A DNA stretch of 64,000 bases from Geosiphon pyriformis uo1 (Eukaryota; Fungi; Glomeromycota), in NCBI GenBank assembly GCA_016748015.1, contig JAAOMT010000503.1, positions 397,669 to 461,668 on the forward strand. Reading direction: 5' to 3'. Below are positions 10,901 to 49,449 of the stretch, piece by piece. The translations under genes and the position numbers were made by a program. Positions within the stretch are counted from its first letter, which is position 1; each line of letters starts with the position of its first letter. Below the pieces are notes generated by a model, which made no database searches, was not told the DNA's origin, and worked only from the letters and a program-made list of their open reading frames with translations.

Positions 10901-13509
10901 GATGTATGGTGGTTTTTTTCGTAGTTCTGGTGTGGAATATCTAACTTTCTTCTATCTTCTTGATTCTTCAAAAATCTCCTGTTCTGTTTCTTCAGCCCAA
11001 TTGGATGTTGATCCAAGAGTTATGTAGGTTTTAGTAAGTGGCATTTTTTTTTCCTCTTCAAATTCAAATACTGGGGCTTTTTCTGATCATTTGTTGAAAG
11101 TACCACAAGTAGCAGATACTATAGTGTATTGTCCTTGGTATGAGATTTTTAGTTCCTGAGTTTCCCAGTCTAAGTTTGTATTGGTCTTAAGAAGCCAATT
11201 ATTTCTGATCAGAGCTTGATATTGAGATGCATCCATAACTAGAACTTTGACTAGAATAGTGATTCCATCAATGATAAATGAGAAATTGTCAATTTCTCCT
11301 ACTGGTGTCTTTTTTATACCATCTGCTATAACAATTACAGTTTGGACTGGTCTGTCAACAGTTCTTTGAAGCTGTTGCATTAACTGGTAGGTGATAATAC
11401 TTCTAGTTGATCCACTGTCTAGAATTAATTGGATGGGCTTTTCTTCAACTATAGCTTCAGTGTACATGGCAGTAATAGCTTTTTGTTCATTAGCTGCTGC
11501 ATTACTAAGCAAGAATAGTAATTTATTTGCTTCAAATTCGAATGGGAATATATCTGAGAGGTTGGCATTTTGGGCAATTTGAGCTGGTGGAATGGTATTG
11601 TTGGAAGGATTTGATCTTGGTGCTGCAACTTTACCTTCAGAAAGTGCAAGTTGTTGAAAATTCGATCTTTCAGGCATTATAAGATAATTGGATTGAGTAT
11701 AATAGTGATTGGGTCTTTGTTGACCAGAATTTCGGAGAACCAACTAGTTATTTGGGTTGGTTCTGTTGTTGTTATTCTGAAATTGATTTTGAGGTGTGAA
11801 TTGGTTATGTTAAACCAATCTTCTGGCTGGTACCTGATATTGTTGAGTGGGTGGTGTCTGATATTGCTGAATTGGTAAAGATTGCTAATATTGTTGCTGC
11901 ATTAGTTGTGGAGCTGGTTGATAGTAATTGTTTTAATTTTGTGGTCTTGGTGAATAATAAGTTGGTGGTGGAGGTTGGTAATAAGATTGTTGTAGTGAAG
12001 AATAATGTTAATTACTCCTGTTTTGTTGGTCTCTTTGCAATTTTCTGCAATCTTGTTTCCAGTGTTCTGGAATTCCACAATAATGACAATTCTGAAATTG
12101 GTTATTGGATGATGATCCAAAGTTGTTTTGGTTTCATTGTTGTGGTGGTTGATATCTTTGTGGTTGCTGTTGCTGTTATTGTTGGTTGGTGAAATAGTTT
12201 TCAACTTTTTTTGTGAGTTGGTCTATTTTCTCTTTAGCTACTGAGCTGGTTTCTCCAATAGCTAGGTTGACAAGTTTGGTGTGGTTTGCTTCTTCCATTG
12301 TCATTTCATAATTTTTTGCATGTCTAATAGCAGTTGCTAAGTCTGCTGGTGCATGTGAACAGACTTTCTTAATCAATTTGTCTTTTAATCCTGCTATAAA
12401 CTGATCCAAAATCTGAGCATTGGAATAGTAGTTGTTGGTTTCTAATTGTCGAATTTGTCAAAGAAGTTTGTTGAATCTTCCAAGATAGGTCATGACAGTT
12501 TCAGATGTTTCTTGTTTGATATTGTGAAAGTGATTGTGGAGAGTAATAGAGATGTTGTTGTTAGTGAATTGTTGTAAGAAAGCATTTTTAAATGCTTGCC
12601 AGTTCTCAAATGGTTCTTCTAAATTTTCAAATCATTCTCTTAGAGAAAGTAGGGAATTGCTTTGAGCATTCTTGCTGCAATCCAACTATTTGCATCTTCT
12701 GCTTTTTGAACTTTGTCAAGCCATTCTTAAGGACTGGTATCATTATTTTTACCAGTAAACTCTGGGATTTTTGCAATGTAAGCAGTTGTCATTTCTTCTT
12801 CATTTTCTGTAGTTTCTTCTTGTTCTGATTCAGTTTCTTCACTTTCCAAGTTTTTTGATTGATTACTTTTGTTTTCTTGTAAGTACTTAATAATATTGGT
12901 GCTTGTTGATATGGGTTTTTGCTGTTGAATAGGATTTTTAGATAACTGATAATCTTTTGGTCTGGAGAAATGATTAAGTGGTGAACTTGGTGTTTGTAGT
13001 TGAACAAGTGAAATTGGAAATAGTGTAATAGAAAGTGGTAATTTGACACTGGTTCTTTGTTCAGGTGTTTGCAAGTGTTTGGCAGTTGTCTTTGGTAGTA
13101 TTGGAGTATTTGGGGTGGTTCTTAAGTATTGTTTCATGTTTTGTTTGCCTTTGTTGCTTGTTTCGGTTTCTGATTCAAAGTTAATAAAATATTGAGATTG
13201 TACTGAATATGTTTTTTCACAGTACTTGATAATGTTAAAATTAAGTTCTTGGAAGTAAGTGACAAGTGTTTTACTGTTAAGGTCTTCAGTTTCCAACTGT
13301 AAATAATGCACTAAATTATTGTAAAGATTACTTCTAACTTCTGAAATGTTGTAATCTCCAAGAAGATAATTGTTGATGTGGTTTTCAATGTATTAGTATA
13401 CTGATTTCTTGACAATTTCAATTCCGTCTGGGATGTTGAATTTTTGCTTGCAGTAGGTGTAAATTGACTGATAATACTCTAGAGTTGTTGTGTCTGGTGT
13501 GGTCGTCAT
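7903..13509 (-). pseudogene. Gypsy A gag-PR-Cys-rich-dUTPase-RT-RNase H polyprotein, fragmented
   Basis: IAKIPEFTG capsid start, CCHC knuckle, LILDSGS protease, RFCVDYRQLN / LDLESGYWQV / YLDN (decayed YLDD), RNase H STELEA. Ends SLSRIKQN* at 7905-7903. Confidence 0.92.
9751..10180 (-). pseudogene. dut: dUTPase domain in Gypsy A polyprotein
   Basis: DAGYNL, ASKSSLA, GGVIDAGYTE, KIAQAI and RGMQGLGSTG match the five motifs of homotrimeric dUTPases. Confidence 0.92.
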
Positions 13510-13554
13510 TTTGAATTTGTTGTTGCTGTGTTATTTCTGTGGAAGAGCACTAAA

Positions 13555-18257: not shown

Positions 18258-18271
18258 TTATCTCCTTCTTT

Positions 18272-18907: not shown

Positions 18908-18963
18908 TTTATCTTGGTTGTTTTTGTTACATATACTGTGCTCTTATATATTCTTTTGGTTGT

Positions 18964-20333: not shown

Positions 20334-20363
20334 GTTTTGTTATATTTTTGGTTTGAAATGTTT

Positions 20364-23300: not shown

Positions 23301-26300
23301 GGAAGAGTTTTTCCACAAGCTAAACATAGTGTATTATCCTATTTTCCCACTTATTTTGGTCTTCTAAAACATTCAACAAAACATGCGTGGCAATAAAACT
23401 TAGTTGCTGTCTGGTATTCTTCGTCATCATCACAGCATGTATCCATTAACAACAGTTTCTTGTCACAATCGACACATACTAGTTTGGGTCAGCAATAGGT
23501 AGACTGTTGTGATAGAGTGTAGGTGGCTGGAATATAAGTGTTGTTGGCTTGGGTGGTGTCTTTTTCTTTCCCTTTTCCTTTGTTTTTTCCTTTATCTTCT
23601 TCCCACTTCCAATTGGATGTCAGTTCATCATTGTCTGTTTATGTTAAATTGTCAGTCTCTCAGGTGAGTTCTTCTTTTTGTTTTCTTTTTTCTGGCTCAT
23701 CCCATAATAGTATTGGTGGTAGTTCATTGTGATCTTCATTGGCCCAAGACACTTGATAGGCTTCCCAGATAGGTTTTTTCTCTTCTTCTTCTAATTCAAT
23801 GAATGGTGTTGTTGGGGTGAGGATTTTGAAATGACCACACTTGGTGGGTACCTGTGTGTGTTGGCCATTCTGGCTAAGCTGTAGTTTTTGTGTGTTCCAG
23901 TCAAGCACAACATTTGCTTTGACTAACCAGTTATTACCAATTAATGCCTGGTACTGAATAGCTTCTATTACCAAAACTTTGATTAATGTAATAATACCGT
24001 TCACTTCAGAGGGAAAATCATCAATCTCACTGATAGGAGTTTTGGTTGCTCCATCTGCAGTAATGATTTGTGCACTGGCAGCTCAATCAACTTGGCGACC
24101 TAATTGGTCCATGAGTTGTCATGTGATTATACTGTCAGCTGATCTACTGTCTAGGATTAGTTTAATAGCATGGCCATCAACTTTTGTGTCAGTGTACATA
24201 GCGGTGATTGATTTGGTGTCAAGAGCAGCTCCACTAAATAATGGAACTGGTATAGTTTCTTCAAGTTTGAATGGGAAGATTGCTACTAGTGATTTGTCGT
24301 TGGTAACAGTGGCTGAAGGTATATTACTGGTGATTAGTTGTTTTTAGTTGGTTGCTGTGTTGTTGGGTGAGACGTTTTCTGGGATAACCAGAAGACTTAA
24401 ATAGTGTTGTGCATTCGGGTTTTGGCCATACCTGGTGCCTGAATTCTGTTGTCAAAATCCTGATGACAGGTTTACAGAACTGGGGATCGGTTGATGGACT
24501 ACTATTGACAATTTCCAGCTTTGTTGTGTTAATCTTGGTCTTTGAGTTCTATTTTGAGGTAAGTTATGTGGCAGTGTCTGATTTTGTTGGGGTGAATAAT
24601 TTATCTGAGACTGCGGCTGATAAATAGGTTGGGACTGCAGTTGATAAATTGATGCTGAAGGCTGATAGACTAAAGGTGAGTATAATTGCTGTATTATTGG
24701 GGTTTGATATATTGGCTGCATTATAGGTAGGTAATTTGGTTGATATAAAGCTGAGTTTGATTGATTACTGATGTAATTTTGAGTTTGTAGTTGGCAATCA
24801 GAGTTTTGATACTAATTAGTTAATCTTTGGTTGCTTATCTTTTTTCAACATTCAAATTGTAAATGTCTTTGTTTATCACAATAGTGGCATACATGCGTTT
24901 CTTGCTGCCACTGTTGATTGGTCAAGGATGATACTGGATGTGACTGATTTTGGGAGTGATTTCCATTTCCCTGATTGTTGCATCATTGGAGCAGTTGATA
25001 AATGATTTGATTAGTGTTAGCTAAGTATCCCTCTAATTTTTGATTGATTGATTTGCTGATTTGTTTTAATTTGGAATCCAGTTCAGATGGTTTATTCATT
25101 ACTAGATTTACTGCATGGACATGGTTGGCTTCGAGTTCAGTGGTTTCAAAATCTCTGGCATTCATAATAGCAGCTTGAAGATTTACTGGATGCATTGGGT
25201 GAATGTGTTAAAGAATACTACTATGTAGGCCTCTAATAAATTGATTCAGGATCTGTGGCACTGTGAAATAATCAGTCTGTATGGTCTGGATTTGGCACAG
25301 ATTTCTGTTGAAGTATTCTAAGTAAGTGGTAACTGCTTCATTTTCTTCTTGTTTGATGATGGTGAAAGTGTTGACTAGACAGTTGATACTATTATTATTA
25401 CTAAAATATCCCAGGAATGCAACTTTAAATTCCTGGAATGTTTGAGATTTGGCAACTAAACTTTGATACCACAAGTCAGCAGTATCTTATAGAAAATAGA
25501 GGATAGCTTGGAGTGCTCTTGCATTGTTCTATCTATTAACTGTGATGGCTTTTTCAACATTGTTAAGCCAGATTTGGGTGTCATCTTCTTCACCAGTAAA
25601 TTTCTTGAGTTTTGCTATTGGAGTGTAGGCCATTAGATCTAAGTTTGGTTGTTGAAGTTGTTGTTGTGGCTGTTGAAGTGACTGCTGAGATTGTTGAGAG
25701 GGTTGAATTGATTCAATAATTGGTTCAATTAATGGCTGATTAATGATGATTACTGGAGATAAGTTTGGCTGATTAATTGATTTGAGGTTTGAATTGTTTT
25801 GATTTCACAGTGTCTGAATATTTGGGGTTTTGATTTCTGGATTTTCTAAATCTAAATGTTGTTGAGCTTGGAGATTTGGGGTTTCAATTGTTGGATTTTC
25901 TGGGATTGGGTTTTGGTAAGTAAATTCTTAATTCTCAGATTCTTCTTCTTGCTCTTCTTCTGATTTCATTATTTCCTATAAATCAGAGATTCCAAAATCT
26001 GGTGGCAATGGCAGTGATTAAAGTCCTGATGGGGTTGGCGATCATGAATTAAATCCCTCGAAGTATTTATTATATGGTCCTAGTAGATCTGTTTTTCTTT
26101 GTTTACTTTGGAATACAAATCATCCAAATGTTGAGGTTGCATTTAATGTGAATGCATTTGCTAATGTAATATTGATGACACTTCCAGAAGTATAATAATA
26201 TGATGGATTTGTGGATGCTTTAACTCTGTGTTTCTTCCAAATGGGTGGTTGGATCCATTAAGGTGTTACTGCTGGTGTTTGTAGTTTTCCTTTGTCTTTG

Positions 26301-26614
26301 CTTGCGTAGGTAATTGAGTATTTTTGTTGTGTGTGATGTTCAATTTCTTTGTTAATCTCAGTGATGATGGATGCAAAATTATGATTTGTTGATAAGCTGG
26401 TGTTTTGGATTAATTTGTGGTAAAAGATTTTTCTTGCTGATTCAATATTTACTGGTGTTTCTAACAAATAGGCAATTCTTTCGTTGACATAAAAATTGAA
26501 GGCTGATTCTACTGATATATAATTTTGGTTTAATCCCAAATGTTGACAGTAGTGTTGAAATAAGAATTTTGTGAATCCTAAATGGTTTGCTCCTATACTT
26601 TCTGATTCTGCCAC
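20364..26614 (-). pseudogene. Gypsy B gag-PR-Cys-rich-dUTPase-RT-RNase H polyprotein, fragmented
   Basis: GTG start; CHYCDKQRHLQFEC knuckle; LILDS protease; ASRSSLAKKGINIRGGIIDTEY dUTPase; LDLDSGYWQV; YLDD; TTDASDQALGAVLSQ. Ends GLS(R)MRQI*. Confidence 0.92.
22196..22620 (-). pseudogene. dut: dUTPase domain in Gypsy B polyprotein
   Basis: TEFDLRY, ASRSSLA, GGIIDTEY, KIAQAI, KGIQGFGSMG. Confidence 0.9.
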
Positions 26615-26658
26615 TTTTGGGATAGGTGTAGTTGGTGCTAGTTCTCTGTAAAATTATA

Positions 26659-26675
26659 CCTCACAGAGAGCACCA
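26659..26675 (-). promoter_or_regulatory. Gypsy B primer-binding site TGGTGCTCTCTGTGAGG
   Basis: Starts with TGG 2 nt after the 5' LTR; complementary to a tRNA 3' end ...CCUCACAGAGAGCACCA. tRNA identity not determined. Confidence 0.85.
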
Positions 26676-26677
26676 AA

Positions 26678-27351
26678 TGTTACAGATAATTATTTGGGGT
26701 CTCAAGTCAAATAACAAATCTGTAACTTGGTGCTTAGTTTGTACTCGGGTGTTAATATTTGAAGGTTTTGTTGTGGAGTTCTTTGTATAATAGACAAAAA
26801 TGCTATTCTTAAATTTTTAATTCTTATATCCTTCCTTTGGAGTCTTTTACCAGACTATCCTTGATGTTAATAACTTAGTGCTTAACTTTTTAATCAATTA
26901 GTAAAACAAAGAAATAAAAACATAAAAGAAATAAAAGAAAATAAAGAAATAAACAAAAACAATTACAAGTTAGTATCCTGTTAATAGCCATAATCAAGAG
27001 CTATTGTTCCAGTGTGGTTAAGTATTAATTACTATCAACATGAAATGTTGATAATGGAGAGTAGATTTAGATGGTAAATAGTTATTTATTTGATATTTGT
27101 AAATGGAAGGTTGCTTAGATCAAATCTAAACTGAGAGGTCTGTCTTTTCTACTTTTAATGCTATCATTATATATACATAATTAATATTCTATGAGATCAC
27201 TCACATTTCTGAGTGATGTGCTATGATTTCTTGAGCAATGTGCCATAATTTCTGATATTGCTCCACATTGCTGAGCAATGTGTTCATGTGCTAAATACTA
27301 TTCTCTCATTGGTCTGCTATTTTCTATATCTGTTTCTTTTTATAAGTAACA
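26678..27351 (-). repeat. Gypsy B 5' LTR (674 bp, internally deleted relative to the 3' LTR)
   Basis: TGTTAC...GTAACA; lacks the segment between the GACAGAGAT direct repeats and has fewer 40-bp units. Confidence 0.94.
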
Positions 27352-28089: not shown

Positions 28090-30018
28090 GTGCTTATAGA
28101 TCCAGTGGGCTCTTCTGCTGGTGTTTTGGGTTTGAGTTCAGCTGGGTTGGGATCCCAGTCTGACAGTAAAAAGATTAAAGTGCATGTTGAGAGTGTATAC
28201 TCACATGGCCCTTTATACAAGAAAATGAAGTTATCTGGTGTCTCTAGTGGTGTTGTGGACTTGTCGGCTGGCCCGCTTTCAGTGGGTATGTTGCATAGTA
28301 ATGGTGTTAGACTGCAGAGATTTTGAGGTAGCGAGGTGGATAGTGAAGAGGCAGGTGTTAGTGAAGTGTTAGATGTCAAGGATTTAGAAAACACAGTTGC
28401 TGAGGAGATGAGTTATGTGGATCCCAATGCTTCTAAGACTGATAATATGAAAGACAATGCAACTCCTAGGAAAACGTGTATGAGGACTTTCATTTTGGAA
28501 CAGCCGCCCAAGGTGATTTCTTTCACAAGCATAAGTGACAACAATTCTGAGGTGGTGCTTTCTGGAGCTAAATTTGCTGGTTCCAATTGGCTGCCACCTG
28601 CAATTTCACGTGTTTTGGTACATTGCATTTTTGGACCAGTTAAATTGTTCGCCTTGGATATAGAGTTGTCAAAAGTACTTGGAAAGACTAATAGTGATAA
28701 GTTGATTTCAATTAAAAATTTTTTTTATTATATTGATGGCTTTAGGGGGGCTTTGACTTCTTCAAAATTTCCTGGGATTATAAGATCAACATTCACAAGT
28801 GAATCTAGTTTGAATAAGGCCAAATTAATGGCAGTCAATGAAAATATTATTGTCAACAGTGATCTTAAGAAGATAAACATTTATTTGGATTGGAAAGTGA
28901 TTATCAAGGAAATTTCTGTTGATCTCCCAAAATCAGCAATTGAGGCAGTGTTTTCTAAGTTTGGTGTGATTAATTCAATCAAGATACAGTTGATCGGTTT
29001 GTGGCAAAAAGCTGTCATTGAATTTGAATCAGCTGAGGTTGCTTGTTTGATTGTTTCTAAATGGTCTGTTCTTGTGGAAAAAGATTCTGTGCAAGTAGCT
29101 TTGACTGTTGGTGACAAACAGATGTGGGTGTTAAAGGACTATCATCAGGTTTTGCTCTATATTCTTCTGATTGGTATGACTGCTCATGATTTAACGGACT
29201 TGTTAGAGTCTTATGGTGGAAAAATGTGTTTCATTGGCCATAATTCTAGCTCGTATGCACATGATAGATGTGCTATTATTTGTTTTAAGAATGAGGCTTC
29301 CAAATTGGCTGTTTTTGGTTTGGTTCTGGTTTTTAAGAAAGTGAGTTTGCGCTGGGCTGGTCTTTCTCTGGCTCACTGCACTGCATGCAAACAGTATGAT
29401 CATACTAGTGAAGAGTGTCCAATAGGTGGGAATTCTGGTAGCCATGGGAAAAAGGTGATGACCAATCTGGATCGTGTTTGTTTGGCCAGAATTTATAAGA
29501 AAAAGCAAGCACCTGTCACTTGTTCAGTCTCTTTTGGTGGCAGAACTTGGGTATTAGTAGTTGATGCTCCTCCAGTGAGTAGTTTTCATGATGCTGGTTT
29601 GATTCTTGGTTCCAACAAAGCTGGTAAATCTCTCTCTCCTATTGTGAATGATTTGGAAAAGCATTTGGTAAATATTGAAAGCAGTCTCATCAGCCTTGCA
29701 GGACAAATTGGTGAGTTGGCTAAGAGATTGGATTCACTCATGCCAGCAGTTCCCCAGCCTAGCCCTGGATGTCAGCTGCCAGTGACCCCCCCATTACAGA
29801 ATCAAGGGAAGGATATAGTAATAGGAGTGGGTTCAAGTGAAGCCACAAATGATGAGGCTGTGAATACTATTACAGTAGAAGACTCATCTGTATCCCCCCA
29901 TGTTACCAAGTTAAAGAATATGTTAGAAGGCCTTGCTGCTTTGGTGCTGAGTTTGTCTGCTTATTTTGACAGTTTGGTTCTGGCTGGTGGTGTGTTTCTA
30001 CAACCTCCTTCCCAATAA
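28090..30018 (+). pseudogene. LINE copy 2 ORF1 (RRM-like, CCHC knuckle, coiled coil)
   Basis: IEAVFSKFGVINSIKIQLIGLWQKAVIEF (RRM-like), CTACKQYDHTSEEC, heptad-like LEKHLVNIESSLISLAGQIGELAKRL; one internal TGA at 28324-28326; start position uncertain. Confidence 0.88.
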
Positions 30019-30634: not shown

Positions 30635-31508
30635 TGTTACAGGATGGTTTTTTTGTTATATTTAATTGCTGATATCCTGTTTTAATTGCAATCAGTCTTT
30701 TGTGAGTTCCTCAATTCTATTTGTGTGATAATGTCACTATTATACTGAAAGCTTTCTTTTTAATGTTGTGATATAAGTTATTCTTCGATTCCTGATTGTT
30801 GTGTGTGTTTATGTACTTCTTTTCAGAGGCTAAACTGAAATCTACCCACTGTCTGGGGTCTTCTCTAAGGCTATTTTTGCAATTGCCTAATGTGTTTCTC
30901 TAATCTAAAAACACAGAATGTTAATAGTCTTTAGCATTTTTTCTAATTCTTACAATAAAGCTTTTATCAATTAGTAACAATGTGAATAATCTTGATCAAA
31001 AATTATTCTTTCAAGAGATTCAGCTGATGAATAATAGTTTTATTCAATAAATAATACAAGTAAGTTTCTTAATACTTTGAGTTGTGATAATTCAGTTTTA
31101 AATATTCTTTTTCATTTCTTTTTGATTTAAAGGTTTCTTGGGATATTTAATTTGAAAGTACGATTTAAAGTGGAGTTTGTTGGATAAAATTGGATCTATT
31201 GCTTGATAAGTTATGATTTTTATTACTTGATTGTCTTTTCCCAATATTAAAGCTACTGTATATATACATGTTTGTAGTTCTACGAGAAAACACATTGTAA
31301 TACTTTCTTTTTGATATTTCAATCTGGTGTTTGCTGCTATTACCAGTTGGTGTTGGCTGCTATTGTGAATTGGTGCTTGCCATTATCACAAAATGGTGTT
31401 TGCTACTATGTTAATTATTACCTTTCTAAAATTATTACTGCACTATATTATGATTGAATAGTTTGTATTATTTTTATGATTTTTTTGCTAAATTCTTAAA
31501 CCATAACA
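30635..31508 (-). repeat. Gypsy D 3' LTR
   Basis: TGTTAC...ATAACA; direct repeat of 49450-50323. Confidence 0.96.
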
Positions 31509-31521
31509 TTATTCCCTCCTT

Positions 31522-32120
31522 TCAAGATTGAGCTCTGTCGAAATCGAAGTTAATTTCTTCATTAAATTCTAAGTTACTATAATGATTCAATACTGTGTTA
31601 TTAATTTGTTGTTGTAATTCTTAAAATTGCGAGTTGGTAAGTCGTCCAATACTGTTGGTTGTTATTATGTTCATGGTTGGGTCCAACAATAGTTTGTGAC
31701 AGTTTTCAAATGCTTTGAAAATTCTGTAAACTGTTTTTGAATGGAATATAGTGTTGGTTTTTTCAATAAAAGATTCTAATAGTTGGATAGTTGTTTTGTC
31801 AAACACTCTAGTTGAGTCTTTTGAGTATAATGTTTGTATGTTCAAGTGCTTTCCTAGTTAATAATAACAGTAATTAATTGGAAATTTCATTTTCAAGTTG
31901 CTAAATGTGTCTGGTGTTAATTCACTTATTTCTATTTCTTCCATTATTAATGTATTGCCCAATGTTATCTCTAATTTTTCAATAACTTTACTGATAAATT
32001 TGTTGTTATATTTGGTAATATTATATGATTCAAAATTATGTTCTTTTTTTGTTTTTGGATTTTCTATTGTTTTTTTTATGTATGTTATTTTGGAGCTATT
32101 AACTGTGATTTTCAGATCGG
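31522..32120 (-). pseudogene. Gypsy D ORF3, C-terminal part (N-terminal part at 42090-42163)
   Basis: Removing C rejoins MILIPENINNITQQLIESLQQLKS|DLKITVNSSKITYIKK, homologous to C ORF3 MIIPQNIQKIFQKLMLALKTLSDLFITINGSQIKYIQK. Confidence 0.85.
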
Positions 32121-33113
32121 TGTTACCAGTAGAATTTTAGCTATTAATTAGCATGAAATTACCCTTATAATTTCTATAATTCATTAGTATATTAATATCA
32201 TTTCAAATTATCATTTATTATTTAATCAATTATTACATATCACGATTCAATTAAAATAATTTAATTAGTATAACAAAAAGTAAGATGATCAAATTACACA
32301 ATACCCTGAACTTTGTAACATTCAAAAATTCGCCGAAATTTACAGAAATTTGCTGAAATTTATAAGAAATTTGCCAAAATTATGAATAGTTCACCCAAAT
32401 TAATTAATAGTTCAGCAAAATAACTTGTAGTTCATCAAAATGTATCTTTAGTTTGCTGGAATTTGGGCAAAAAAGAAAAAGTGCAAGTTCATAAACTAGT
32501 ACTACAACAAGTTGTATAAAAGAAAAGCTTTTCTCTTTTGGAAAATGTATCTTATTTTAGATTTATCTCTTAAAACCGTTCCTATATACACAAAAAGAAA
32601 TAAATATCAAATAATTCGAAAAAACCAAATTCTTTAATTATTGTACTTGGAAAATCCCCAAAACCCAACTAACATTTCGAAATTGATTAGCTACCAATTT
32701 CAGTAAACTGTTAGTGACTCCAGGTCTGGATAGAAAATATTTCTCTTGACAAAATTCTATTTCTTTTACATTTCTTTTATTTTCCTTTTCTTTTCTTATT
32801 ACAATTATTAGGGTAGCCTACAAACAAGATTCCTGTAGAAGAGTTGACTTTCACAGCAAAGTAACTATACATTTTAGTGAGCTTCCAGATGAGCAATTTC
32901 TGGGAAAGAGTTGACGTTTACTACAACGTAACTACATAAAGTAACTGGCAAAGAATTGGCCATTCCACTTATAAGCCCAGCAGTTCAAATTATAGGAGAT
33001 AATTTGAAGATAAATTTAGTTATTGGAGGTTCAACTACTTCCTGAAAATGTGAATTCACAGCAAATCAACATTACCAACATTTAAGAAAAGAGACCAAAA
33101 ATCTCCAGTAACA
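32121..33113 (+). repeat. Gypsy C 5' LTR (993 bp)
   Basis: TGTTAC...GTAACA; near-identical to 41071-42089. Confidence 0.97.
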
Positions 33114-33115
33114 TT

Positions 33116-33131
33116 TGGTGCTCTCCCACGG
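33116..33131 (+). promoter_or_regulatory. Gypsy C primer-binding site TGGTGCTCTCCCACGG
   Basis: TGG 2 nt after the LTR; shares TGGTGCTCTC with family B. Confidence 0.85.
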
Positions 33132-33158
33132 AAATAACACAGCAACAACAAATTCAAA

Positions 33159-36100
33159 GTGGCGACCACACCAGACACAGCAACTCTAGAGTATTACCAG
33201 TCAATTTACACCCACTGCAAGCAAAGATTCAACATTTCAGACGGAATTGAAATTGTAAAGAAATCAGTATACCAATACATTGAAAACCGCATCAACAATT
33301 ATCTTTTTGGAAACTACAACATTTCAGAAGTTAGAAGCAACCTCTACAATAATTTAGTGCATTATTCACATTTGGGAACAGAAGACCTGAACAGTGAAAC
33401 ACTTGCTACCTACTTCCAAGAACTTAATTTTAATATTATTAAGCATTGTGAAGAAAAATACCCAGTACAGTCTAAATACTCTTTTGACTTTGAATCAGAG
33501 ACAGAAACAAGCAATAAAGGCAAACAAAGATTAAAGCAATACTCAAAAACCACTCCAAACACTCCAACACTACAAAAGACAACTGCCAAACACTTGCAAA
33601 CACCTGAACAAGGAACCAGTGTCAAATTACCACTTTCTATTACACTATTTCCAATTTCACTTGTTCAACCACAAACACCAAGTTTACCACTTAGCCATTT
33701 TTCCAGACTAGAAGATTTTCAGTCACCTAGAAATTCTACTCAACAGCAGGAACCAATATTAACAAGTGCCAATATCATTGATTACTTACAGGAAAACGAA
33801 AGTAATCACTCAGAAAGCTTGGAAAGTAAAGAAACTGAATCAGAACCAGAAGAAATTCCAGAAAACGAAGAAGAAATGGCAACTGCTTACATTGCAAAAA
33901 TCCCAAAATTTACTGGTAAAGACAATGATACCAGTCCCCAAAAATGGCTTGACAAAGTTCAAAAAGCAGGAGATGCAAATGGTTGGGTTGCAGCAAGAAT
34001 GCTCAAAGCAATTCCCTACTTTCTCCAAGGAACAGCAGGAGAATGGTTTAAAAATTTAGAAGAACCATTTGAAAACTGGCAAGCATTCAAAGATGCTTTT
34101 CTACAACAATTCATCGACAACAATACCTCTATCACTCTCAGAAACCATTTTCACAATATCAAACAAGAAACATCTGAATCTGTTATAATCTATTTTGAAA
34201 GATTTAACAAACTTCTCAGATGAATCTGACAATTGGAAACCAATGACTACTATTCTGATGCTCAAATTCTGGATCAGTTTATAGCAGGGTTAAAAGACAA
34301 ACTGATTAAAAAAGTCCATCCACATGCTCCAGCAAACTTAGCAACTGCTATTAGACATGCAAAGAGCTATGAAATGGCAATGGAAGAAGCAAATCACACC
34401 AAGCTTGTAAACCTTGCAATTAGAGAAACCAGCTCAGCAACTAAAAAGAAGATAGACCAACTCACAAAAAAAGTTGAAAGCTACTTCACAAACCAATAAC
34501 AACAACAACAACAACCACAAAGATATCAACTCCCACAATGATGCAACCAAAACAATTTTGGATCATTATCCAACAACCAATCTCAAAATTGTTATTATTG
34601 TGGAATTCCAGGGCATTGGAAACGAGATTGTAGGAAATTACAAAGAGACCAACAAAACAGGAGTAATCAACATTACTCTTCACCACAACAATCTTATTAC
34701 CAATCTCCACTACCAACTTATTATTCACCAAGACCACAAAATCAAAACAGTTACTATTCACCAGCTCCACAATTAATGCAGCAACAATATCAGCAATCTT
34801 TACCAATTCAGCCATATCAGACACCACCCATTCAACAATATCAAGTACCAGCAAGAAGATTGGTTCAACATAACCAATCCACACCCCAAAATCAATTGCA
34901 AAATAACCACAACAGAATCAATCCAAATAACCAGTTGGTTCCCCGAAATTCAGGCCAGCAAAGACCCAATTACTATCACACTCAACCCAGTTATCTTACA
35001 ATACCAGAAGAATCGGATTTTTAACAAACTGCACTTTCTGAAGGTAAAATTGCAGCACCAAGATCAAACTCTTCCAACCACACTATTTGCCCAGCTCAAA
35101 TTGCCCAAAATGCTAATCTGTTAGATATATTTCCATTTGAATTTAAGGCAAATAAATCACCATTTTTGCTTAGTAATGCAGCAGTCAATGAACAGAAAGC
35201 AATTACTGCCATGTACACAGAAGCTACAGTGGAAGGAAAACCCATTCCCTTAATCTTAGATAGTAGATCAGCTGGAAGTATCATCACTTACCAGCTGATG
35301 TAACAACTCAAACAAAACATAGACAGACCAGCTCAAACAGTTATTGTTACAGCTGATGGTATGAAGAAGACTCCAGTAGGAGAAATTGATGATTTCTCTT
35401 TTTCAATTGATGGAATCACCATTCCAGTTAAAGTTCTTGTTATGGATGCACCCCAATACCAAACTCTAGTCAGAAATGATTGGCTTCTCAAAGCCAATGC
35501 AAACCTGAACTGGGAAACTTAAGAACTTAAAATCTCATACCAAAGACAATATACCATAGTACCTGCAACCTATGGTACCTTTAACAAACAATCAGAAAAA
35601 GCTCCAGTATTTGAATTTGAAGAGGAGAAAAAAATGCCACTTACTGAAACCTACATGGCTCTTGAATCAACATCCAATTGGGCTGAAGAAACCAAACAAG
35701 AGATTTTCGAAGAATCAAGGGGATGGAAAAAAGTTAGATATTCTACACCAGAACCACAGAAACAACCACTCTATATTCTACTCAAATGCAAAGATTGCAA
35801 CAAAAAACTTTCATCAATGGAAGCATGTATTTTTCCAGAAAAGGAATATAAAACTCATATCTGTTATTTTTGCAAAGCATACCATAGAGAACGATTTGGA
35901 TCTCCAAAAAGAAGTGGAAAATGGGACAACACACCTTGCCTTACATGTGAAGAAATACTACCAGAAGAATGCAATTGGATTGATGTAGCAATGAAAGAAG
36001 GAGTATGTGATCAAACCTGTCAATATGCTCTATCAATTTTGGAAAAAGTCAGAAGAGGGACACCATTTAATGCAGCATACAACAGTGCTCTTAATAAACT

Positions 36101-38796
36101 TTACCACTACCCTCATGATGCTGAAATGATTTTTGACTTAGCAATGGCATTAATCAATGGAGCCACTCAAGAAGATATTCGCCAAATGAAAGAAGCTGAA
36201 TATATTGAGTACACCATGGAATTAGCTGGATTTGATTATGAAGATGAAGTAGAAACCTACTACCAAATTGCAAGCCACACATATCTGACCAAAGAAGCTC
36301 AAATTCAACGATTAGAGCAAATGAACATTCAATTGTGTGAAGAATGTATTATGCCTTGTGATGACCAATAGTGTTTAGAATGTTATGTTCTTAGCATTCC
36401 TCTGCCAGATGAGAATGATGAAAATAAAATCGAATTTGGAGTATCTGAACAAGTAGAAGAACTACTAACCACTCCCATCTATCTTCTTGAAAAGCAACTA
36501 CCTCTACAACTTAAATATTTTGACAACCATGGCCAAAGAATCAGACCAGAAAAAGCACATGAAATTGATGCTGGATATGACCTAAGATACCCAGGAAAAG
36601 ATACTTTAATTCTTCAACCAAAGTCTTTGACAAAAATCAATCTAAAAATTGCTCTTGAAATTCCACCAGGAGCAATGGTTCAAATTGCCTCCAGATTATC
36701 ATTGGCAAGCAAAGGAATCAATATTAGAGGAGAAGTTATAGATGCAGAATACACTGGAGACATTACCATCATGTTACAGAATGAAACAGACAAACCATTC
36801 AAAATTGAACATGCTAAAAAAATTGCTCAAGCAATTTACTTACCCTTAATCAACATTTCGGGTTTACAATCAGTAAACAACAGAGAACAATTGGGAAAAA
36901 GTGAAAGAGGAACTCAAGGTTTTGGTTTAACTGGACGATTTACAGTTCCAGTAAACATAGTTCTTAATACACAAAATGAATTTCACCAGATTCTTCAACT
37001 TCCTCAGCCAATTACCATTTCACCTTTTGGAGAACATCACGAAATTTACACTTGCTCAAAACTCACCACTACACAACAAATCTTTGAATCCAATGAACAA
37101 ATCTGTTTGAAGCATGAAATATCAATTCCAAACGTTTATATTCCCAAAGGAATGAAAAAATTTCGAGTTACATTCTACAACCCCAATAATTACCCTATTG
37201 TTTTATTAAACAAATTAGAAATTGGAATCATACACAGCAATATCTTTCAAGATGAAAACCCTCAAATTGTCTCTAATTTTATCGAAATTATAAAGCACAC
37301 TCTATTCCCAAATCCAAATATCATTCCCACTACTGAAAACTACTACTTGTTGGAAGAAAAACTCTCTTGAATCAATATGAGTCTCTTAGAACCTCAACAA
37401 CAAAGACAATTGAAACAATTGATAGCTGAATTTGCAGATATATTTGCAAAAGACAACAATGACTTGGGAAAAACAGACATTGTTCAACATCAGATCCATA
37501 CAGGAGATGCTCTACCAAAACGTCAACAAGCTTATCGAGTGCCACCTGCCAGCCACCAATTTATCAGAGAAGAGGTCCAAAGAATGCTTAATAACGGATT
37601 GATACAACCATTAAGAAGTCTTTGGGCCTCACCAGTAGTTTTGGTTAAAAAGAAAAACGGAAAAATTAGATTCTGTGTTGATTATAGACAACTGAATAGT
37701 GTTACAATTGGAGATGCCTACCCTCTTCCAAGAATTGATGACATGCTAGATGCTCTGGGAAAAGCTAAGTTCTTTTCAACTTTAGACCTGGAAAGTGGAT
37801 ACTGGCAAGTCGAAATAGACCCAAAAGATAGACCCAAAAGATAGACCCAAAACAGCATTCACCACTCAAGGAGGAAATTATGAGTTTAATGTTATGCCTT
37901 TTGAACTCTGCAATGCACCAGCAACATTTCAGCGACTCATGGATGTTGTCTATGAAGGGCTCTTGTGGCAATCAGTAGTTGTTTATCTTGATGATACTGA
38001 TGTATACTCACCAAGCTTTGAAGCCCATCTCATTCACTTGCAAGAAGTTTTTCAACAATTACAGAAAGCAGGATTAAAGTTAAATATTGAGAAATGTCAC
38101 TTTGGAAAAACAAGTTTGATCTTTCTTGGACACATAGTTAGTAAAGATAGAATCAAACCAAATCCAGGAACAATCAATGCTGTCAAAAACTTTCAAACCC
38201 CCAGAAATACTACAGAACTAAAAGGATTTGTGGGATTAGCCTCTTACTATCGAAAATTCATAAAAAAATTCTCAGAAATTGCCAAACCACTCAATTATCT
38301 TATCAACAAAAATGTACCATACAAATGGACTGAAGAACAACAAAAAGCTTTTGAAATTCTCAAAACAAAATTGACAACAGCCCCAGTTCTTGCTTACCCA
38401 GACTTCAACAAACAATTCCAATTAGCAATTGATGCCTCACATATAGCATTTGGTGCCATCTTATTACAATTGAATGAAAATGGCCAAGAACAAGTTATTG
38501 CCTATGCCAGCAGAACACTCAAGCCAACAGAACTCAAATATGGCTCAACTGAATTAGAAGCTGCTGCAGTTATCTGGGCTCTTAAACATTTTTAACAATA
38601 TCTGAAAAATGGAAAAGAATTTGACATAATAACAGACAACATTGGCCTCAAATGGCTCAATAAAAAGAAAACTGAACAAAGTGCCAAACAGTCTCAATGA
38701 AATGACTTCCTAGCAGACTACAGATATATTGTACACCACAAACCAGAAAAACTACATATCAATGTTGATAGCCTCTCAAGAATAAGACAAGATTAG
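33159..38796 (+). pseudogene. Gypsy C single-frame gag-PR-Cys-rich-dUTPase-RT-RNase H polyprotein (~1870 codons)
   Basis: Fragments starting at 33159, 34233, 34776, 35634, 36627 and 37377 share one frame; the only net shift is a 13-bp duplication in 37815-37853. CYYCGIPGHWKRDC at 34590; LILDS; VYLDD; ends DSLSRIRQD*. Confidence 0.94.
36500..36935 (+). pseudogene. dut: dUTPase domain in Gypsy C polyprotein
   Basis: DAGYDLRY, ASRLSLA, GEVIDAEYTG, KIAQAI, RGTQGFGLTG. Confidence 0.94.
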
Positions 38797-38853
38797 TACC
38801 AACAACAATTTCACCACAACTTACCAACTTACCAACAAAATAACCAAACAAGA

Positions 38854-40239
38854 ATAGATCCCAGAAACTACAGCAATCTTAAAAATTATTTGGAGACCCT
38901 TACCATGCCAGAAAACTGGTCTCCAAATGAAAAACACCGCTTATAACACCAATCAAAACAATATTTCATACACCAGAACAAAATCTATTATAAAAATCAC
39001 AGAAAACCAAACCAGCCACTCAGATTAGTACAAGAGAATGAAAAAGAAACAATTTTATACAACATACACACAGATCTGTCTTCAGCACACTTGGGAAAAG
39101 AGAAAACAATTTAAAGAACCCTTGAACATTATTTTTGGCCTCACATGCAAAAAGACATTTAACAATATGTAGAATCTTGTAATAACTGCCAAAAAAGAGG
39201 AGAAACTTGCCCCACAGAACCTTTAAATTCAATCAAAGTTGGACAACCTTTTGACAGAGTTGGAATTGATTTAGTCAGACCATTACCTATCACAACCCAA
39301 GAAAATCATTATATTGTAGTTGCAGTAGATTATTTTACTAAATGGCCTGAAGCTAGAGCCATCCAAAGAGCAGATGCAAAATCAGTAGCAAAATTCATCT
39401 ATGAAGACATTATCTGTAGACATGGATGCCCAATTGAACTCTTATCTAATCAAGGAACACATTTTGTGAACAACTTGATACAAAAAATTTGTGAACGGTT
39501 CAATGTCAAAAGACCTCTATCATCACTTTATCGCCCTTAAACAAATGGACTTGTAAAACATTTCAACAGAACATTGTGTGAATCTTTAGCCAAAGTTTCA
39601 ACAGACTTTGAACAGGAATGGGATATCTTTATTCCATCAGTGTTACTAGCATACAGAACACTAAAACAAGATACTATGAAACACACACCATTTGATCTTA
39701 CTTATGGAAGGACAGCAACATTACCAATTAATTTCACAGTGGAAACATACCCAGTGCAACCAATCAATGAAGAAAACTTTCAAGAAACACTCCAAAGAAG
39801 AGCCTACACTCTTCTTAGTACACTGGAAGAAAAAAGAAGAATAGCAGCAGCTCATATTGAACATTTCCAAGCTCAACAAAAAGAAAGACATGACAACAAA
39901 TTACCATTTATTACCAATGAATTTAAAGTTGGAAATAAAGTTTTCTTACACAGAACTAAGGCTGAAAAACAATGGAGTGGAAAATTTGAAAACAAATAGG
40001 ATGGACCATTTTATATTCACGAAATTCTAAGCAATGGATCATATAAGTTAAGACTTGATGACAAAATATTAGCAAAAGTTGCACATGGAGACAAACTGAA
40101 ACACTATTATTCCAGAAACAATCCTGAACCATTAATTCCACAAATTAGTACACATTCCCCTTTAATTAATCCTGAAGATATTCCCCGAAATTTAGAACCA
40201 ATAATTATAATAAAACAACAACCAAACTTGAACACTTAA
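38854..40239 (+). pseudogene. Gypsy C integrase, separate ORF (start ATA, probably decayed ATG)
   Basis: HTDLSSAHLG...CNNCQ, VGIDLV, LSNQGTHF, NGLVKHFN, DGPFYIH; no chromodomain. Confidence 0.88.
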
Positions 40240-40382
40240 ATTTTACAATAATTCTCTACTAAAAACACAAAGACAAAAATAGTAAATAATTACAAAACAC
40301 CCAAACCCAAAAACAAATAAAAACCCCATATCCAAAAAATAATTTTCTTTATTTTCTCTTTTCATAATTAGTCAATTTTATC

Positions 40383-41090
40383 ATGATTATTCCCCAAAAT
40401 ATTCAAAAAATATTCCAAAAATTAATGTTAGCCTTGAAAACACTCTCTGACTTATTTATAACAATTAATGGAAGTCAAATTAAATACATTCAGAAAGAAA
40501 CCACAGCCCCAGTAGCAAATCATTTACAGAACTATCACCCCTATAAAAGAGAAACAAGAAGTCACTTTGAGAATAGATTACCAAGACTTTTAAAGCAGGC
40601 ACTAGAAGAAAATCTGCTAATTGCCCCTATTGACATTTCACCAAATGCTACAATGCAACAAAAACTACTACTACTTCTTAATGAACAGAACAATAAACAC
40701 ACCTCTATCTATAAATACTTTCAAATTGGAAAAACACTTTATGAACGAAAACTGGAACTTGAAGCAACAAATCTCACTCCTGAAGTTATACAAAAACAAA
40801 TCTACAATGAATTCAAAACAGCAGCTGGACCAACAAACACTCGCTACAAACTTAGAGCAGCTTTTAGACTCTATGACTTGTTTAATACTTGTGAAAATGT
40901 TCTACAAAATCCAATACTGCAATCAATAAAAGTCCAATACATTGGCAAACTCACAGAACTGAAATTTCAACAATTTTCAGACCAGATTACTTCAATCATT
41001 TTAGATCACTATCTCAATATTACAGATAGTGCTTGGACTTCAACAGAATTCAGTCTTGAGGAAGAGATTATGTTACCAGTAGAATTTTAG
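40383..41090 (+). CDS. Gypsy C ORF3, intact 235-aa protein of unknown function
   Basis: Open ATG-to-TAG frame that reads through the PPT and 20 bp into the 3' LTR; homologues in A, B and D. Confidence 0.85.
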   Translation: MIIPQNIQKIFQKLMLALKTLSDLFITINGSQIKYIQKETTAPVANHLQNYHPYKRETRSHFENRLPRLLKQALEENLLIAPIDISPNATMQQKLLLLLNEQNNKHTSIYKYFQIGKTLYERKLELEATNLTPEVIQKQIYNEFKTAAGPTNTRYKLRAAFRLYDLFNTCENVLQNPILQSIKVQYIGKLTELKFQQFSDQITSIILDHYLNITDSAWTSTEFSLEEEIMLPVEF

Positions 41091-42089
41091 CTATTAATTA
41101 GCATGAAATTACTCTTATAATTTCTATAATTCATTAGTATATTAATATCATTTCAAATTATCATTTATTATTTAATCAATTATTACATATCACGATTCAA
41201 TTAAAATAATCTAATTAGTATAACAGAAAGTAAGATGATCAAATTACACAATACCCTGAACTTTGTAACATTCAAAAATTCGCCGAAATTTACAGAAATT
41301 TGCCGAAATTTATAAGAAATTTGCCGAAATTATGAATATAAGAAATTTGCCGAAATTATGAATAGTTCACCCAAATTAATCAATAGTTCAGCAAAATAAC
41401 TTGTAGTTCATCAAAATGTATCTTTAGTTTGCCGGAATTTGGGCAAAAAAGAAAAAGTGCAAGTTCATAAACTAGTATTACAACAAGTTGTATAAAAGAA
41501 AAGCTTTTCTCTTTTGAAAAATGTATCTTATTTTAGATTTATTTCTTAAAACCATTCCTATACACACAAAAAGAAATAAATATTAAATAATTCGAAAAAA
41601 CCAAATTTTTTAATTATTGTACTTGGAAAATTCCCAAAACCCAACTAACATTTCGAAATTGATTAGCTACCAATTTCAGTAAACTGTTAATGACTCCAGG
41701 CCTGGATAGAAAACGTTTCTCTTGACAAAATTTTATTTCTTTTACATTTCTTTTATTTTCCTTTTCTTTTCTTATTACAATCATTAGAGTAGTCTACAGA
41801 CAAGATTCCTGTAGAAGAGTTGACTTTCACAGCAAAGTAACTATACATTTTAGTGAGCTTCTAGACAAGCAATTTCTGGGAAAGAGTTGACATTTACTAC
41901 AATGTAACTACATAAAGTAACTGGCAATGAATTGGCCATTCCACTTATAAGCCCAGCAGTTCAAATTATAGGAGATAATTTGAAGATAAATTTAGTTATT
42001 GGAGATTCAACTACTTCCTGAAAACGTGAATTCACAGCAAATCAATATTATCAACATTTAAGAAAAGAGACCAAAAACCTCCGGTAACA
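41071..42089 (+). repeat. Gypsy C 3' LTR (1019 bp)
   Basis: Equals the 5' LTR plus one extra 26-bp TATAAGAAATTTGCCGAAATTATGAA unit. Confidence 0.97.
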
Positions 42090-42247
42090 TCGGATTTTAA
42101 TTGTTGTAAGCTTTCAATTAATTGTTGAGTTATATTGTTGATGTTTTCTGGAATAAGTATCATTGTTTTAATTTTGACTGCTATTTTGGAATCTTTTGCA
42201 TGTGGTTTTATGGTTGTTAAATCATTTTTGCTGTAATCTAAGATTAA

Positions 42248-43627: not shown

Positions 43628-43656
43628 TGTTGTTGTGGTGGGTGGGTTGGTAATTT

Positions 43657-46600: not shown

Positions 46601-49367
46601 CACTGCACACAGTCATAGATGAGAGTTTCTTCTTGCAAACCGAGCATTCTAACTTTGGTCTGTGTTGCTGGTGGTTTCTTCATAGACTTACCTGGTTTCA
46701 TTCGGATCTTTCTTCACTGATCCATGTTGATACAACTGGTAGTTCTGTTCTTTGGTCATTAGCCCAAGAGAGCTGATAGGTTTCGATGGCTGGTAGTGCT
46801 GGATTTTTCTCAAATTCGAAGGTAGGTCTTTGGTTGGCACTGGGTTTTTGGAAGTGGCCACAGGTGGCTGAAATTCTGGCCTGGTGGCTATTATAATTGA
46901 TCAAAAGCTCTTGGGTGGTCCAGTTTAGAGTGGCATTGGCTTTTGTTAACCAGTTATTTCCTACTAACACTTGATATTGTGTAGTGTTCATTACTAATAC
47001 TTTTGTAGATATTACTATGCCATTAATTTCGAAAGAGAATGAGTCGATTTCACCATAAAACAGCTTTGTACTTTCATTGGCTGTTATGATTTGGGATGTC
47101 GTGGCATGATCAACTTTGAAACCTAGTTGGTTTACTAGTTGAAGTATTACAATGCTTCCAATGGATCCGCTGTCTAAGATAAGTTTAATTGAGGTATTGT
47201 TTATAGTGGCTTCTGTATATATAGTAGTGATTGGGCATTTTTTGTCCAATGCTGCTCTACTGAACATAGTTTTGTTTTTCTCTAATTCAAAAAGAAAAAT
47301 AGCTGCGAGGCTGCTATTTTCGGTGGTAACTGCTGGTGGTATTGTCTGGCTCAATTTTTTGGAGGAATTTTTGGTTCTGTTTATGTTTCTACCATCATTG
47401 TTTTCAATGATTAGATTTTCTGGTATATTAAGATAAGTTTGTTGATAATTTTGGTAGTTTAGATTGGTTTGCTGATTGGTTCCAATATGGTTTGGATTCC
47501 TCTGGACCAATGCGTTCTGGTTCTACATGGGCTGATTTCAGGCCTCGGGATGCCAATATGGGTTGGTTATTATGGGCTGTTGCTGGTAAGTTTCTTGATT
47601 TTGATATGTGGTAAGATATTGGCGTGGTATTGGCGTGTACTGGTTTTTGGACATTTGGGATGGCATGTAGTAATTATTTTCACATGTTTTCTGCATTATT
47701 TGCATTCAACATTGACTAATCAAATGTTCTATGTATTTGCAAAAATAGCAGACATGCATTTCTGTTCTGAATTCCTAATGTGACGAGTGATTATTTTGAC
47801 TGTTGCTAACTTCCTGACTGTGTCTTTAGAGTGGTTGGTATGTATTTCTTCTTGGATCCAGGATAAGGTAACTTTCTATTTTCTTAGAGAGTTCCTTCCT
47901 TAATTGCATTACTCTTTTCTTTAATGTTTCTGTCTTATTTTTCTTCATTACTATGTTAACTATTTGATTATGGTTAGCTTTTTTCTCAGCCAATTCAAGG
48001 GCTCTGGCGAGCGTAACGGTTTCTGGTAAGGAATTAGGATAGGCAGGGCGTACTCTTCCTAAAATACTGCTTTTTAATCCTCTAATAAACTGATTTAAAA
48101 CCTGAGAATCAGTGTAGTATCTTTGTTCAATCACTTTAATCTGATGGCAAATTCAATTGAATCAAGCAAGATATTGGGTGAGAGTTTTACTAGTATTTTG
48201 CTTGATAGTATTGAATTTGTTCTGTAGTTGGATTATGGCATTTGGGTTGCTAAAATACTCCAGGAGTGCATTTTTAAATTTGGCGAAGCTCGTGGGTTTT
48301 GTTTCCAGACTTTGATATCACAAGTCGGCTGTGCCTTTCAGGAAGAAAGATAATGTTTGAATTGCTCTTTGGTTGTTCCAGTTATTTGTTTGGATGGCTT
48401 TTTGTGTTTCTCTAAGCCACATGTGCATGTCCGTTTCTTCTTCTTCTCCTGAGAAATCTGTTAGTCTTGTAATATATGATGTGGCCATTTTGTTGCCATT
48501 TTCTGCTGGTGGGCTTATTGGTCTAAGAGGAGGTGGGATGATATTTCCTTGAGCATTCCTAAAGGTGGCTTCCTTTATATCTGGTTTTTTCTCTTGATCA
48601 TGAGTTTTTTGGTTTCTGGACTGGCTGCTTATTCCAGTGACTGGTCTTGTAATTGTTTTTTCACTGGTTTCTTTTTTGGATTCTAATTCTGATTCCTCTT
48701 CTTGGTTTTCAAACCCCATTTCGAATTTTGGCTGAAAAAAAGGGTTTTGGAATAGTGATGAATATCCTCTTGTAATTGGTATGTCTCCTCAGTTACGTTG
48801 TTTAATTTTATCAGTATAACTAAGAGTTCTTGGCATTTGTGGAGTTGATGTTGATGATAATGCAGCTCCTAATGGAATTTGTATCTTATTTTCTGGTGAA
48901 AAATGGTATGATTTATCTTCTAGTGAATAAATACGTTGTTTTTTTATTGATTGAGTGACAGTTTTCTTTGGTGTTTGAGCAGGTGTTCCTAGTTTTTGCT
49001 GGTTACTTTCCTGATTAATTTCTGAATTTTTTTTGGTTTTGTTGGCACATTCCCTAGTGTTTCCTGTGGATATTGGAAAATTTTTGTTGGCATATTGCTT
49101 AATTTTTCGATGAATTTTGACAATAGTTGCGGCTATTACTGCTACTTTTTTTGTAGTGTATTGTGATAATTCTCTATACAATCCAAGTTTTGTGTCATGT
49201 GGTTCTTCTTCCTTTCCTATATGATAATTTATTCTGGCATTGATATAATAAGTGAGAACAGATTCTGCTGGACAACACTCTTCTGGTAATTCAAGATCAC
49301 TTTGATTTTGTGTGTAAATAGCATGGCAGAATTCAAGAACAGTAAGGTTAAGGGTTTTTGTCACCAC
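43657..49367 (-). pseudogene. Gypsy D gag-PR-Cys-rich-dUTPase-RT-RNase H polyprotein, fragmented
   Basis: GTG start; CYFCKYIEHLISQC; LILDSGS; ERAHPTDARFDL...VIDFRYTG...KIAQAI...FGSTE dUTPase (~45490-45920); VYLDN; ATDVSGTGLGAILSQ. Ends DCLLRMRHT*. Confidence 0.92.
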
Positions 49368-49449
49368 TTTTGTCTCTTCCTTTTTAGCAATGAATTATTG
49401 CTAATTATTATTTCCTTTTTGATTTTCTTTCCTCATAGAGTTCACCAAA

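Follow-up and report, generated by a model that had tools for sequence, protein, structure and literature searches.

How is Gag translated from a retrotransposon whose reading frame opens on GTG and whose first ATG lies hundreds of nucleotides downstream, at the start of the capsid? This question is raised by a 64,000-nucleotide stretch (the window) of AT-rich fungal DNA from Geosiphon pyriformis, which carries four decayed Ty3/gypsy elements termed A, B, C and D. Self-comparison of the window places A and C (85% identical) in one family, B in a second and D in a third. Element A occupies positions 4634-14527 on the minus strand, B about 17600-27300 (minus) and C 32121-42090 (plus). Element C is nested within the extra ORF of D, which is thereby interrupted and spans 30635-50323 (minus). 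Target duplications of 4 bp flank A, C and D, whose LTR pairs are about 93-94% identical with TG...CA ends; the B 5′ LTR can be aligned only in part. Two solo LTRs of the A/C family lie at 51477-52456 and 55508-56462. LTR elements account for 41.2% in Geosiphon and are its most abundant repeat class, and a similar LTR expansion is described for Ambisporaceae (PMC11952901).

Structure, domain order and capsid fold place these elements in the Ty3/gypsy class. The 5′ LTR of C (32121..33113, plus strand, TG...CA) is matched by a 3′ LTR at 41071-42089, with the target duplication TCGG. Directly inside it, at 33116..33133 (plus), is a primer binding site (PBS)-like TGGTG... sequence. TGGTG... likewise adjoins the LTRs of B and D, and no tRNA gene was found in the 64-kb window. 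A single frame in C runs from the GTG through capsid, zinc knuckle, protease and dUTPase into reverse transcriptase (RT), and RNase H and integrase follow after 13 bases that are extra relative to A. The frame of this copy is interrupted by stops and by the 13 extra bases, near 37814. Pfam identifies the capsid and zinc knuckle (PF03732, PF19259, PF00098) and the order PR-RT-RNase H-IN; no chromodomain was detected by Pfam at the integrase C-terminus of this decayed copy. The Ty3/Arc-type capsid domain (Pfam, structure alignment) covers 33876..34388 (plus), and the rest of gag-pol (zinc knuckle, protease, dUTPase, RT, RNase H and integrase; Pfam) covers 34389..40240, the end being approximate. 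The fungal Ty3/gypsy element PosPlaTy3-5 likewise has a dUTPase between PR and RT (PMC2864245), although its group was collected as chromodomain elements; no passage on a start codon or a single ORF was found in that paper. A slippery-looking sequence followed by TAA at the end of C gag (35024) was considered as a frameshift signal and rejected, given that A and four annotated copies read FQQ in frame there. Between protease and dUTPase lie about 300 Cys-rich codons (35600-36540, C codons about 815-1125) with no Pfam match.

Annotated copies were used to estimate the inherited state of the elements. We aligned 120 copies for C (of 271 matches), 120 for B (of 147) and 51 for D (52 matches minus P0123, a copy identical to D over the searched region). 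Every copy is from one species and related to the others by kinship, and the statistics below rest on these kin copies. The copy counts are based on automatic gene models, and the thresholds for calling decay were our own. All copies are decayed. Transitions make up 1047 of the 1271 differences between A and C, with CpG sites most often affected, a pattern that we read as C>T/G>A decay. CG methylation of transposons has been described in Rhizophagus (bioRxiv 2021.03.30.436303).

The original prediction placed the opening of the Gag frame at AAA-GTG-G, and this was borne out at 33159 (plus) in C, 26614 (minus) in B and 49367 (minus) in D. The motif in C, AAA-GTG-GCG (33156..33164, plus), is proposed as a near-cognate start, its context having A at -3 and G at +4. 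Element A reads AAA-ATG-ACG at 13509 (minus) where C has GTG GCG, its first codon (13507..13509, minus) being ATG. Among copies with a residue at codon 1, the C family has Val in 90, Met in 14 and Leu in five (109 of 120 examined), the B family Val in 99, Met in one and Leu in two (102 of 120), and the D family Val in 38, Met in one and Leu in three (42 of 51). Hence the consensus is not ATG at this codon; Val/GTG is the majority in all three families. The codon-1 column decays to Met and never to Ile, whereas other Val columns do give Ile, which argues that codon 1 was inherited as GTG and not as just any Val codon.

The ATG of element A had been attributed to G>A decay, and the copy alignments agree. 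At non-CpG GT sites, 42 of 188 sites differ between A and C, or about 12% G>A per copy; this rate is matched by the 13% share of Met at codon 1 of C and is not exceeded in B or D. Met is also similarly frequent in both C subfamilies (9/69 and 5/35). Because the Met share equals the decay rate and is alike in the two subfamilies, the ATG of A reads as a decayed GTG. The Met counts are if anything too high, since gene finders favour ATG and nine of 15 C-family Met cases are gene-model starts. The context is conserved as well. Residue -1 is Lys or Thr, giving A at -3, in 90/96 (C), 97/100 (B) and 38/38 (D) copies, and residue +2 is Ala or a decay product of Ala, implying G at +4. These are the two conserved positions of near-cognate starts in fungi (PMC5487733). 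No unusual RNA structure was found around the GTG (z 0.32).

Sequences upstream of the GTG suggest that it is where coding begins. Peptides just upstream of it fall into three frames in both families analysed, with counts of 63/11/15 and 10 unclassified in B (n=99) and of 33/5/11 and 41 unclassified in C (n=90); the classes come from our own patterns on one nucleotide motif, and the gene models may splice. Subfamilies therefore appear to enter the GTG in all three frames, as expected if coding starts there, and the length upstream seems free to vary by non-multiples of three. An in-frame TAA eight codons 5′ of the GTG, reported for A and C, is indeed present in both (33135..33137, plus, in C), but it is not universal. 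It is the majority state, with CAA in a minority: in the DNA contigs T at 33135 accounts for about 91% of depth and C for 8.5%. Many annotated copies read KQHSKNNFK through this position, and in one group of C copies the vicinity of the GTG is free of stops. Where CAA is present the frame continues into the LTR, whose last 565 nt hold no inherited ATG. The variant calls from DNA contigs are incomplete for clustered sites (one expected at D codon 59 does not appear), and missing calls at the GTGs and at the upstream stops of D were not used as evidence.

An upstream exon that is spliced on and supplies the AUG of the extension, leaving the GTG as merely a conserved Val, would account for the frame that stays open into the LTR in one C group, and most automatic gene models do attach upstream exons to the N-terminal domain. 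These modelled exons, however, vary from copy to copy. A spliced AUG also sits poorly with a GTG that is entered in three frames, that is conserved as the codon GTG specifically and that keeps A-3 and G+4, and a long form started by AUG has no need of the AUG-free stretch described below. We regard this explanation as very improbable.

Several further features of the LTRs were noted. A frame of about 55 codons at 32953-33111 in the C LTR is open in many annotated copies (ELAIP...KETKNL); it begins at an ACG that decays to ATG, and many gene models include this frame. It may be either a chance product of A/C-rich DNA or a near-cognate upstream ORF. Pyrimidine tracts occur within the LTRs of C (32760-32812), B and D, and those of B and D have in common a branch-point-like TACTAAT that is soon followed by an AG. 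These motifs are possible splice acceptors.

From the GTG to the ATG at the capsid boundary there are 717 nt in A and in C, 981 nt in B and 879 nt in D. The extension is thus 239 codons long in C (33159 to 33875), 327 in B (25631..26614, minus; GTG at 26614 and capsid ATG at 25633) and 293 in D (48486..49367, minus; GTG at 49367 and capsid ATG at 48488). The prediction that C has no ATG on the plus strand up to 33875 proved correct, and the ATG-free run reaches back to 33049. The count of zero in the C extension compares with 6.3 +/- 2.0 in 1000 dinucleotide shuffles, none of which reached zero, and with 4.7 in codon shuffles (p 0.003). Raw depletion against shuffled controls is also significant in A (2 vs 7.0, p 0.011) and B (7 vs 13.3, p 0.012), but not in D (10 vs 12.8, p 0.19). 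When only ATGs common to A and C are counted, the extension has none, compared with 9.4 expected from the remainder of the element (P 8.5e-5). ATG is the most depleted of the 64 triplets in the A/C extension, and its reverse complement CAT is present at a normal level (6 vs 7.4).

The stretch without an ATG common to A and C (32548..33875, plus) is 1.33 kb long. This gap, of 1331 nt from 32545 to 33876, is the longest in the element, the next outside the LTRs being 443 nt. C itself has ATGs within it at 32889 and 33048, where other LTR copies read ACG/ACA. Within the initial 430 nt of the LTR, three ATGs (32153, 32285 and 32545) are common to A and C; were transcription to begin upstream of these, shunting or reinitiation would be required.

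Inherited ATGs were separated from those made by decay using one rule for extension and downstream codons alike. Inherited-looking ATGs number 0/237 extension codons vs 14/393 downstream in C (p 0.003), 0/325 vs 7/347 in B (p 0.016) and 1/291 vs 5/257 in D (p 0.11, not significant alone). Pooled, the counts are 1/853 and 26/997 (p 1.8e-6), whereas ATGs made by decay are evenly spread (16 vs 28, p 0.22). The upstream ATGs now visible in B and D had been suspected to be decay products, and all seven in B and nine of ten in D are so classified rather than as ancestral. Two D cases are confirmed directly by the DNA contigs of run X1, which carry C for T in 51% at 49239 and in 80% at 49435, within the PBS. 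Codon 178 of D has Met in 25 of 40 copies, with Thr tending toward the least decayed ones. One candidate inherited AUG in D is out of frame at codons 92-93 (Ala39/Thr5, ambiguous). The AUG gap is a real and statistically strong feature of these elements.

Could this pattern be an accident of decay or base composition, acting on an element whose ancestral start was ATG? Element A has ATG at codon 1, as do 14 of the 104 C-family copies with Val or Met, and Met is uncommon in these A/C-rich proteins. The preponderance of transitions between A and C, read as C>T/G>A decay, argues against this account, as does the Val majority in three families whose extensions are only about 20% identical. Moreover, codon shuffles preserve composition and yet predict the 4.7 ATGs that C lacks. 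On the sequence evidence this possibility is largely refuted, and we consider it barely credible.

The first ATG of C, at 33876 as originally predicted, opens MATAY and has counterparts at 12792 in A (12790-12792, minus), 25633 in B and 48488 in D. It is the first inherited AUG of the frame (codon 240, gaaATGg, 33876..33878, plus) and lies at the start of the capsid domain. The residue at this boundary is Met in 87 of about 97 C copies (counted over two offsets), Met in 50 and Ile in 16 of 66 B copies, and Met in 28 and Ile in six of 34 D copies; Met is the inherited residue in all families. In structural alignments, the capsids of Arc and dArc align over model residues 240-322 (Z 8-9), and that of dArc1 aligns from model residue 240 itself (Z 8.2, rmsd 3.0, 81 aligned). 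Since the Met is inherited and the dArc1 capsid aligns from 240, a product started at this AUG would hold the whole capsid domain.

A conserved Met at this site need not be a start codon. If the GUG were the sole start, the Met could be part of a protease site or a structural residue, and a short form would arise by processing. Its position fits such a role: in all families it is 10-11 residues ahead of the F-x-G capsid motif and directly after a disordered linker. Retroviral-type proteases favour hydrophobic junctions, and a weak start could just hold expression low. What this explanation leaves unaccounted for is the avoidance of out-of-frame AUGs over 720-980 nt, with AUGs returning right after the capsid AUG. 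Also, ribosomes that pass the weak GUG would get to the capsid AUG anyway. We therefore judge exclusive use of the GUG improbable.

The extension consists of two parts. Codons 1-104 (33159..33470 in C, plus) form a predicted four-helix domain that is homologous in B, C and D, and are followed by a predicted disordered linker rich in S/T/P/Q that ends in an acidic run (33471..33875, plus). The original prediction of an upstream domain of ~110 amino acids that is homologous across families was right as to the homology, but the folded domain accounts for about 104 of the 239-327 codons of the full extension. Pairwise comparison with hhalign gives probabilities of 97% (B-D), 83% (C-D) and 74% (C-B), compared with 8.7% for the best of 20 column shuffles each. 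In a protein-guided alignment of the domain, codon position 2 agrees at 179/336 sites and position 3 at 119/336. Structure prediction, which had been proposed for this domain, yields four helices with a mean pLDDT of 79.6 (AlphaFold), and a longer AlphaFold model has disorder at 105-236 and then a confident capsid from about 240.

The domain has no match in Pfam or PDB sequences, and Foldseek searches of PDB and BFVD gave nothing at E<=0.001. Its best fold score (Z 6.8) is to a designed protein, a value that generic helical bundles also reach. A PAZ_2 match of the D domain (E 8e-4, below cut-off) was rejected because it is not shared by B or C. In a protein-cluster search the domain was without match, and P0001 led to generic Retrotrans_gag clusters. 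Such a lack of matches proves neither novelty nor the absence of relatives. For the N-terminal region of C, all 120 matches listed (of 271) are annotated proteins of Geosiphon pyriformis. No relative beyond Geosiphon was found among the 292 matches listed, and ten of ten distant matches looked up are from Geosiphon; the profile search gave 335 matches, and 185 outside those listed could include other species. Viral contigs, metagenomes and prokaryote genomes gave nothing usable as loci, the viral contigs yielding three weak partial matches.

The combination of a non-AUG start in strong context, a stretch cleared of AUGs and an AUG at the capsid boundary resembles a leaky-scanning arrangement. 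We consider it likely that leaky scanning at the two starts yields two forms of Gag-Pol from the single gag-pol frame, the long one minor and the short one major. Under this mechanism, a minority of ribosomes would initiate at the conserved GUG to produce the long form, and the remaining ribosomes would scan 720-980 nt free of AUGs to the capsid-start AUG and produce the short form. The most likely role of the long form would be to equip some of the capsid subunits with the extra domain, which would serve in targeting or regulation. Use of both starts, their location on a single mRNA and the predominance of the short form are inferred from sequence.

This arrangement has a counterpart in a plant virus. 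ORF III of rice tungro bacilliform virus carries the capsid. As in Geosiphon, a non-AUG first start in ORFs I-III of this virus is followed by an AUG-poor stretch toward the capsid, in this case about 895 nt without other AUGs, and leaky scanning has been proven (PMC3542737). The viral ORFs are separate and follow a shunt, whereas the Geosiphon elements have one in-frame extension.

Two forms of Gag could also come from two RNAs, with the long form made from the GUG on genomic RNA and the short form from a separate internal or spliced RNA. Ty1 offers a precedent, being a retrotransposon with long and short Gag in which the short form, p22, is made from the internal Ty1i transcript (PMC5408680), and pyrimidine tracts with branch-like motifs are present in the LTRs here. 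In Ty1, though, seven internal in-frame AUGs precede p22 and are given as the reason that scanning is precluded (PMC5408680). In Geosiphon the whole stretch from 32548 is cleared of AUGs, which an internal transcription start would not require. Ty1 p22 further differs in having AUG starts, in comprising the C-terminal half only and in belonging to the Ty1/copia group. A second RNA thus seems quite improbable as the source of the short form.

Leaky scanning on a single gag-pol mRNA invites comparison with murine leukaemia virus (MLV), to whose glyco-Gag the extension had been likened. In MLV, an in-frame upstream CUG in strong context produces glyco-Gag (gPr80), an extended Gag, beside the AUG form (PMC5778647, PMC3542737). 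Ribosome density on its extension, which is 88 residues long (PMC5120145), is 6.7% of that on gag (PMC5778647). The analogy holds for translation layout: in both systems a near-cognate in-frame start in strong context lies upstream and would lengthen Gag. It fails for function. The MLV extension has a signal peptide and directs the protein to the cell surface, whereas the Geosiphon extension has no hydrophobic anchor (the highest 19-residue Kyte-Doolittle mean is 0.92-1.31 in A-D), and its AUG opens the capsid directly. The sequence and fold searches of the Geosiphon extension listed no counterpart, neither the MLV extension nor retroviral matrix. The Geosiphon version also differs in its length of 239-327 residues, in its predicted globular domain, in using GUG instead of CUG and in belonging to a fungal retrotransposon. 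Finally, it is cleared of AUGs, unlike the MLV extension, which holds an AUG with detected initiation (PMC5778647).

Another parallel is human PEG10, a gag derived from Ty3/gypsy, in which an upstream near-cognate codon and an AUG are both used, as established by mutation (PMC2800197). The Geosiphon elements have the same order of codons in a Ty3/gypsy-type Gag. PEG10 is a domesticated host gene, however, with its CUG just 34 codons upstream and with pol expressed via a -1 frameshift. The Met of the human AUG is not conserved in PEG10 orthologues, whereas the Geosiphon Met is conserved and a whole domain lies between the starts. Among fungal genes, Neurospora cpc-1 has conserved near-cognate starts of an N-terminal extension with A-3 and G+4 (PMC5487733), the context found here, although cpc-1 encodes a host transcription factor under uORF control and its starts are CUG, AUU and ACG.

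An additional ORF of about 230 codons is located between integrase and the 3′ LTR in all three families. It is open in both C (40368-41090, plus) and A (5590-6309, minus), and is found at about 18260-18860 (minus) in B and at about 42090-42170 and 31500-32120 (minus) in D. Homology between families is evident against 300 shuffles (C-D z 21.7, B-D z 35.2, C-B z 7.8), and the ORFs of C and A have no Pfam match. A pyrimidine tract and AG precede it in C (about 40340-40371), an arrangement suggestive of a spliced accessory gene in the env position. A more far-reaching proposal joins this ORF to the two Gag forms. The weak GUG would determine what fraction of capsid subunits bears a domain of new fold on a long flexible tether, giving mixed particles, and together with the ORF this would constitute a system for targeting or movement to other nuclei of the coenocytic fungus, comparable to the accessory proteins of retroviruses but free of env. 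We think this proposal unlikely and offer it as speculation.

Other parts of the window were also inspected. Segments related at 65-72% identity, in which RT and RNase H matches are weak (1-3080, 50660-55470 and 58800-62900), are probably decayed non-LTR elements on the minus or plus strand. Tandem arrays consist of 57-nt units (3233-3916) and of 40-nt units (18048-18190), the latter within a B LTR and differing in copy number between the two LTRs of B. Long open frames at 28327-30018 (plus, 563 codons) and 57224-58711 (plus, 495 codons) have no Pfam match above cut-off. The long ORFs listed at 1231-2097 are artefacts of an assembly gap of 867 N.

Extensions of Gag that start at non-AUG codons are known from the retrovirus MLV and from domesticated PEG10. 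In the open-access literature, at the level of titles and the openings of abstracts, we found no non-AUG Gag start for a transposing LTR element, Ty3/gypsy elements included, and no report of these families. The Geosiphon elements have retained this layout across three families at about 20% identity of the extension, and in their hundreds of decayed copies the selection against AUG over 0.7-1 kb is recorded with unusual clarity. The layout predicts a hidden domain that ORF finders would truncate or join to false exons, as in the gene models examined here, and an AUG-free in-frame leader is a sequence test that we suggest for scanning other LTR elements. For Geosiphon itself, the strictness with which start codons are chosen may be a control on its most abundant class of repeats.
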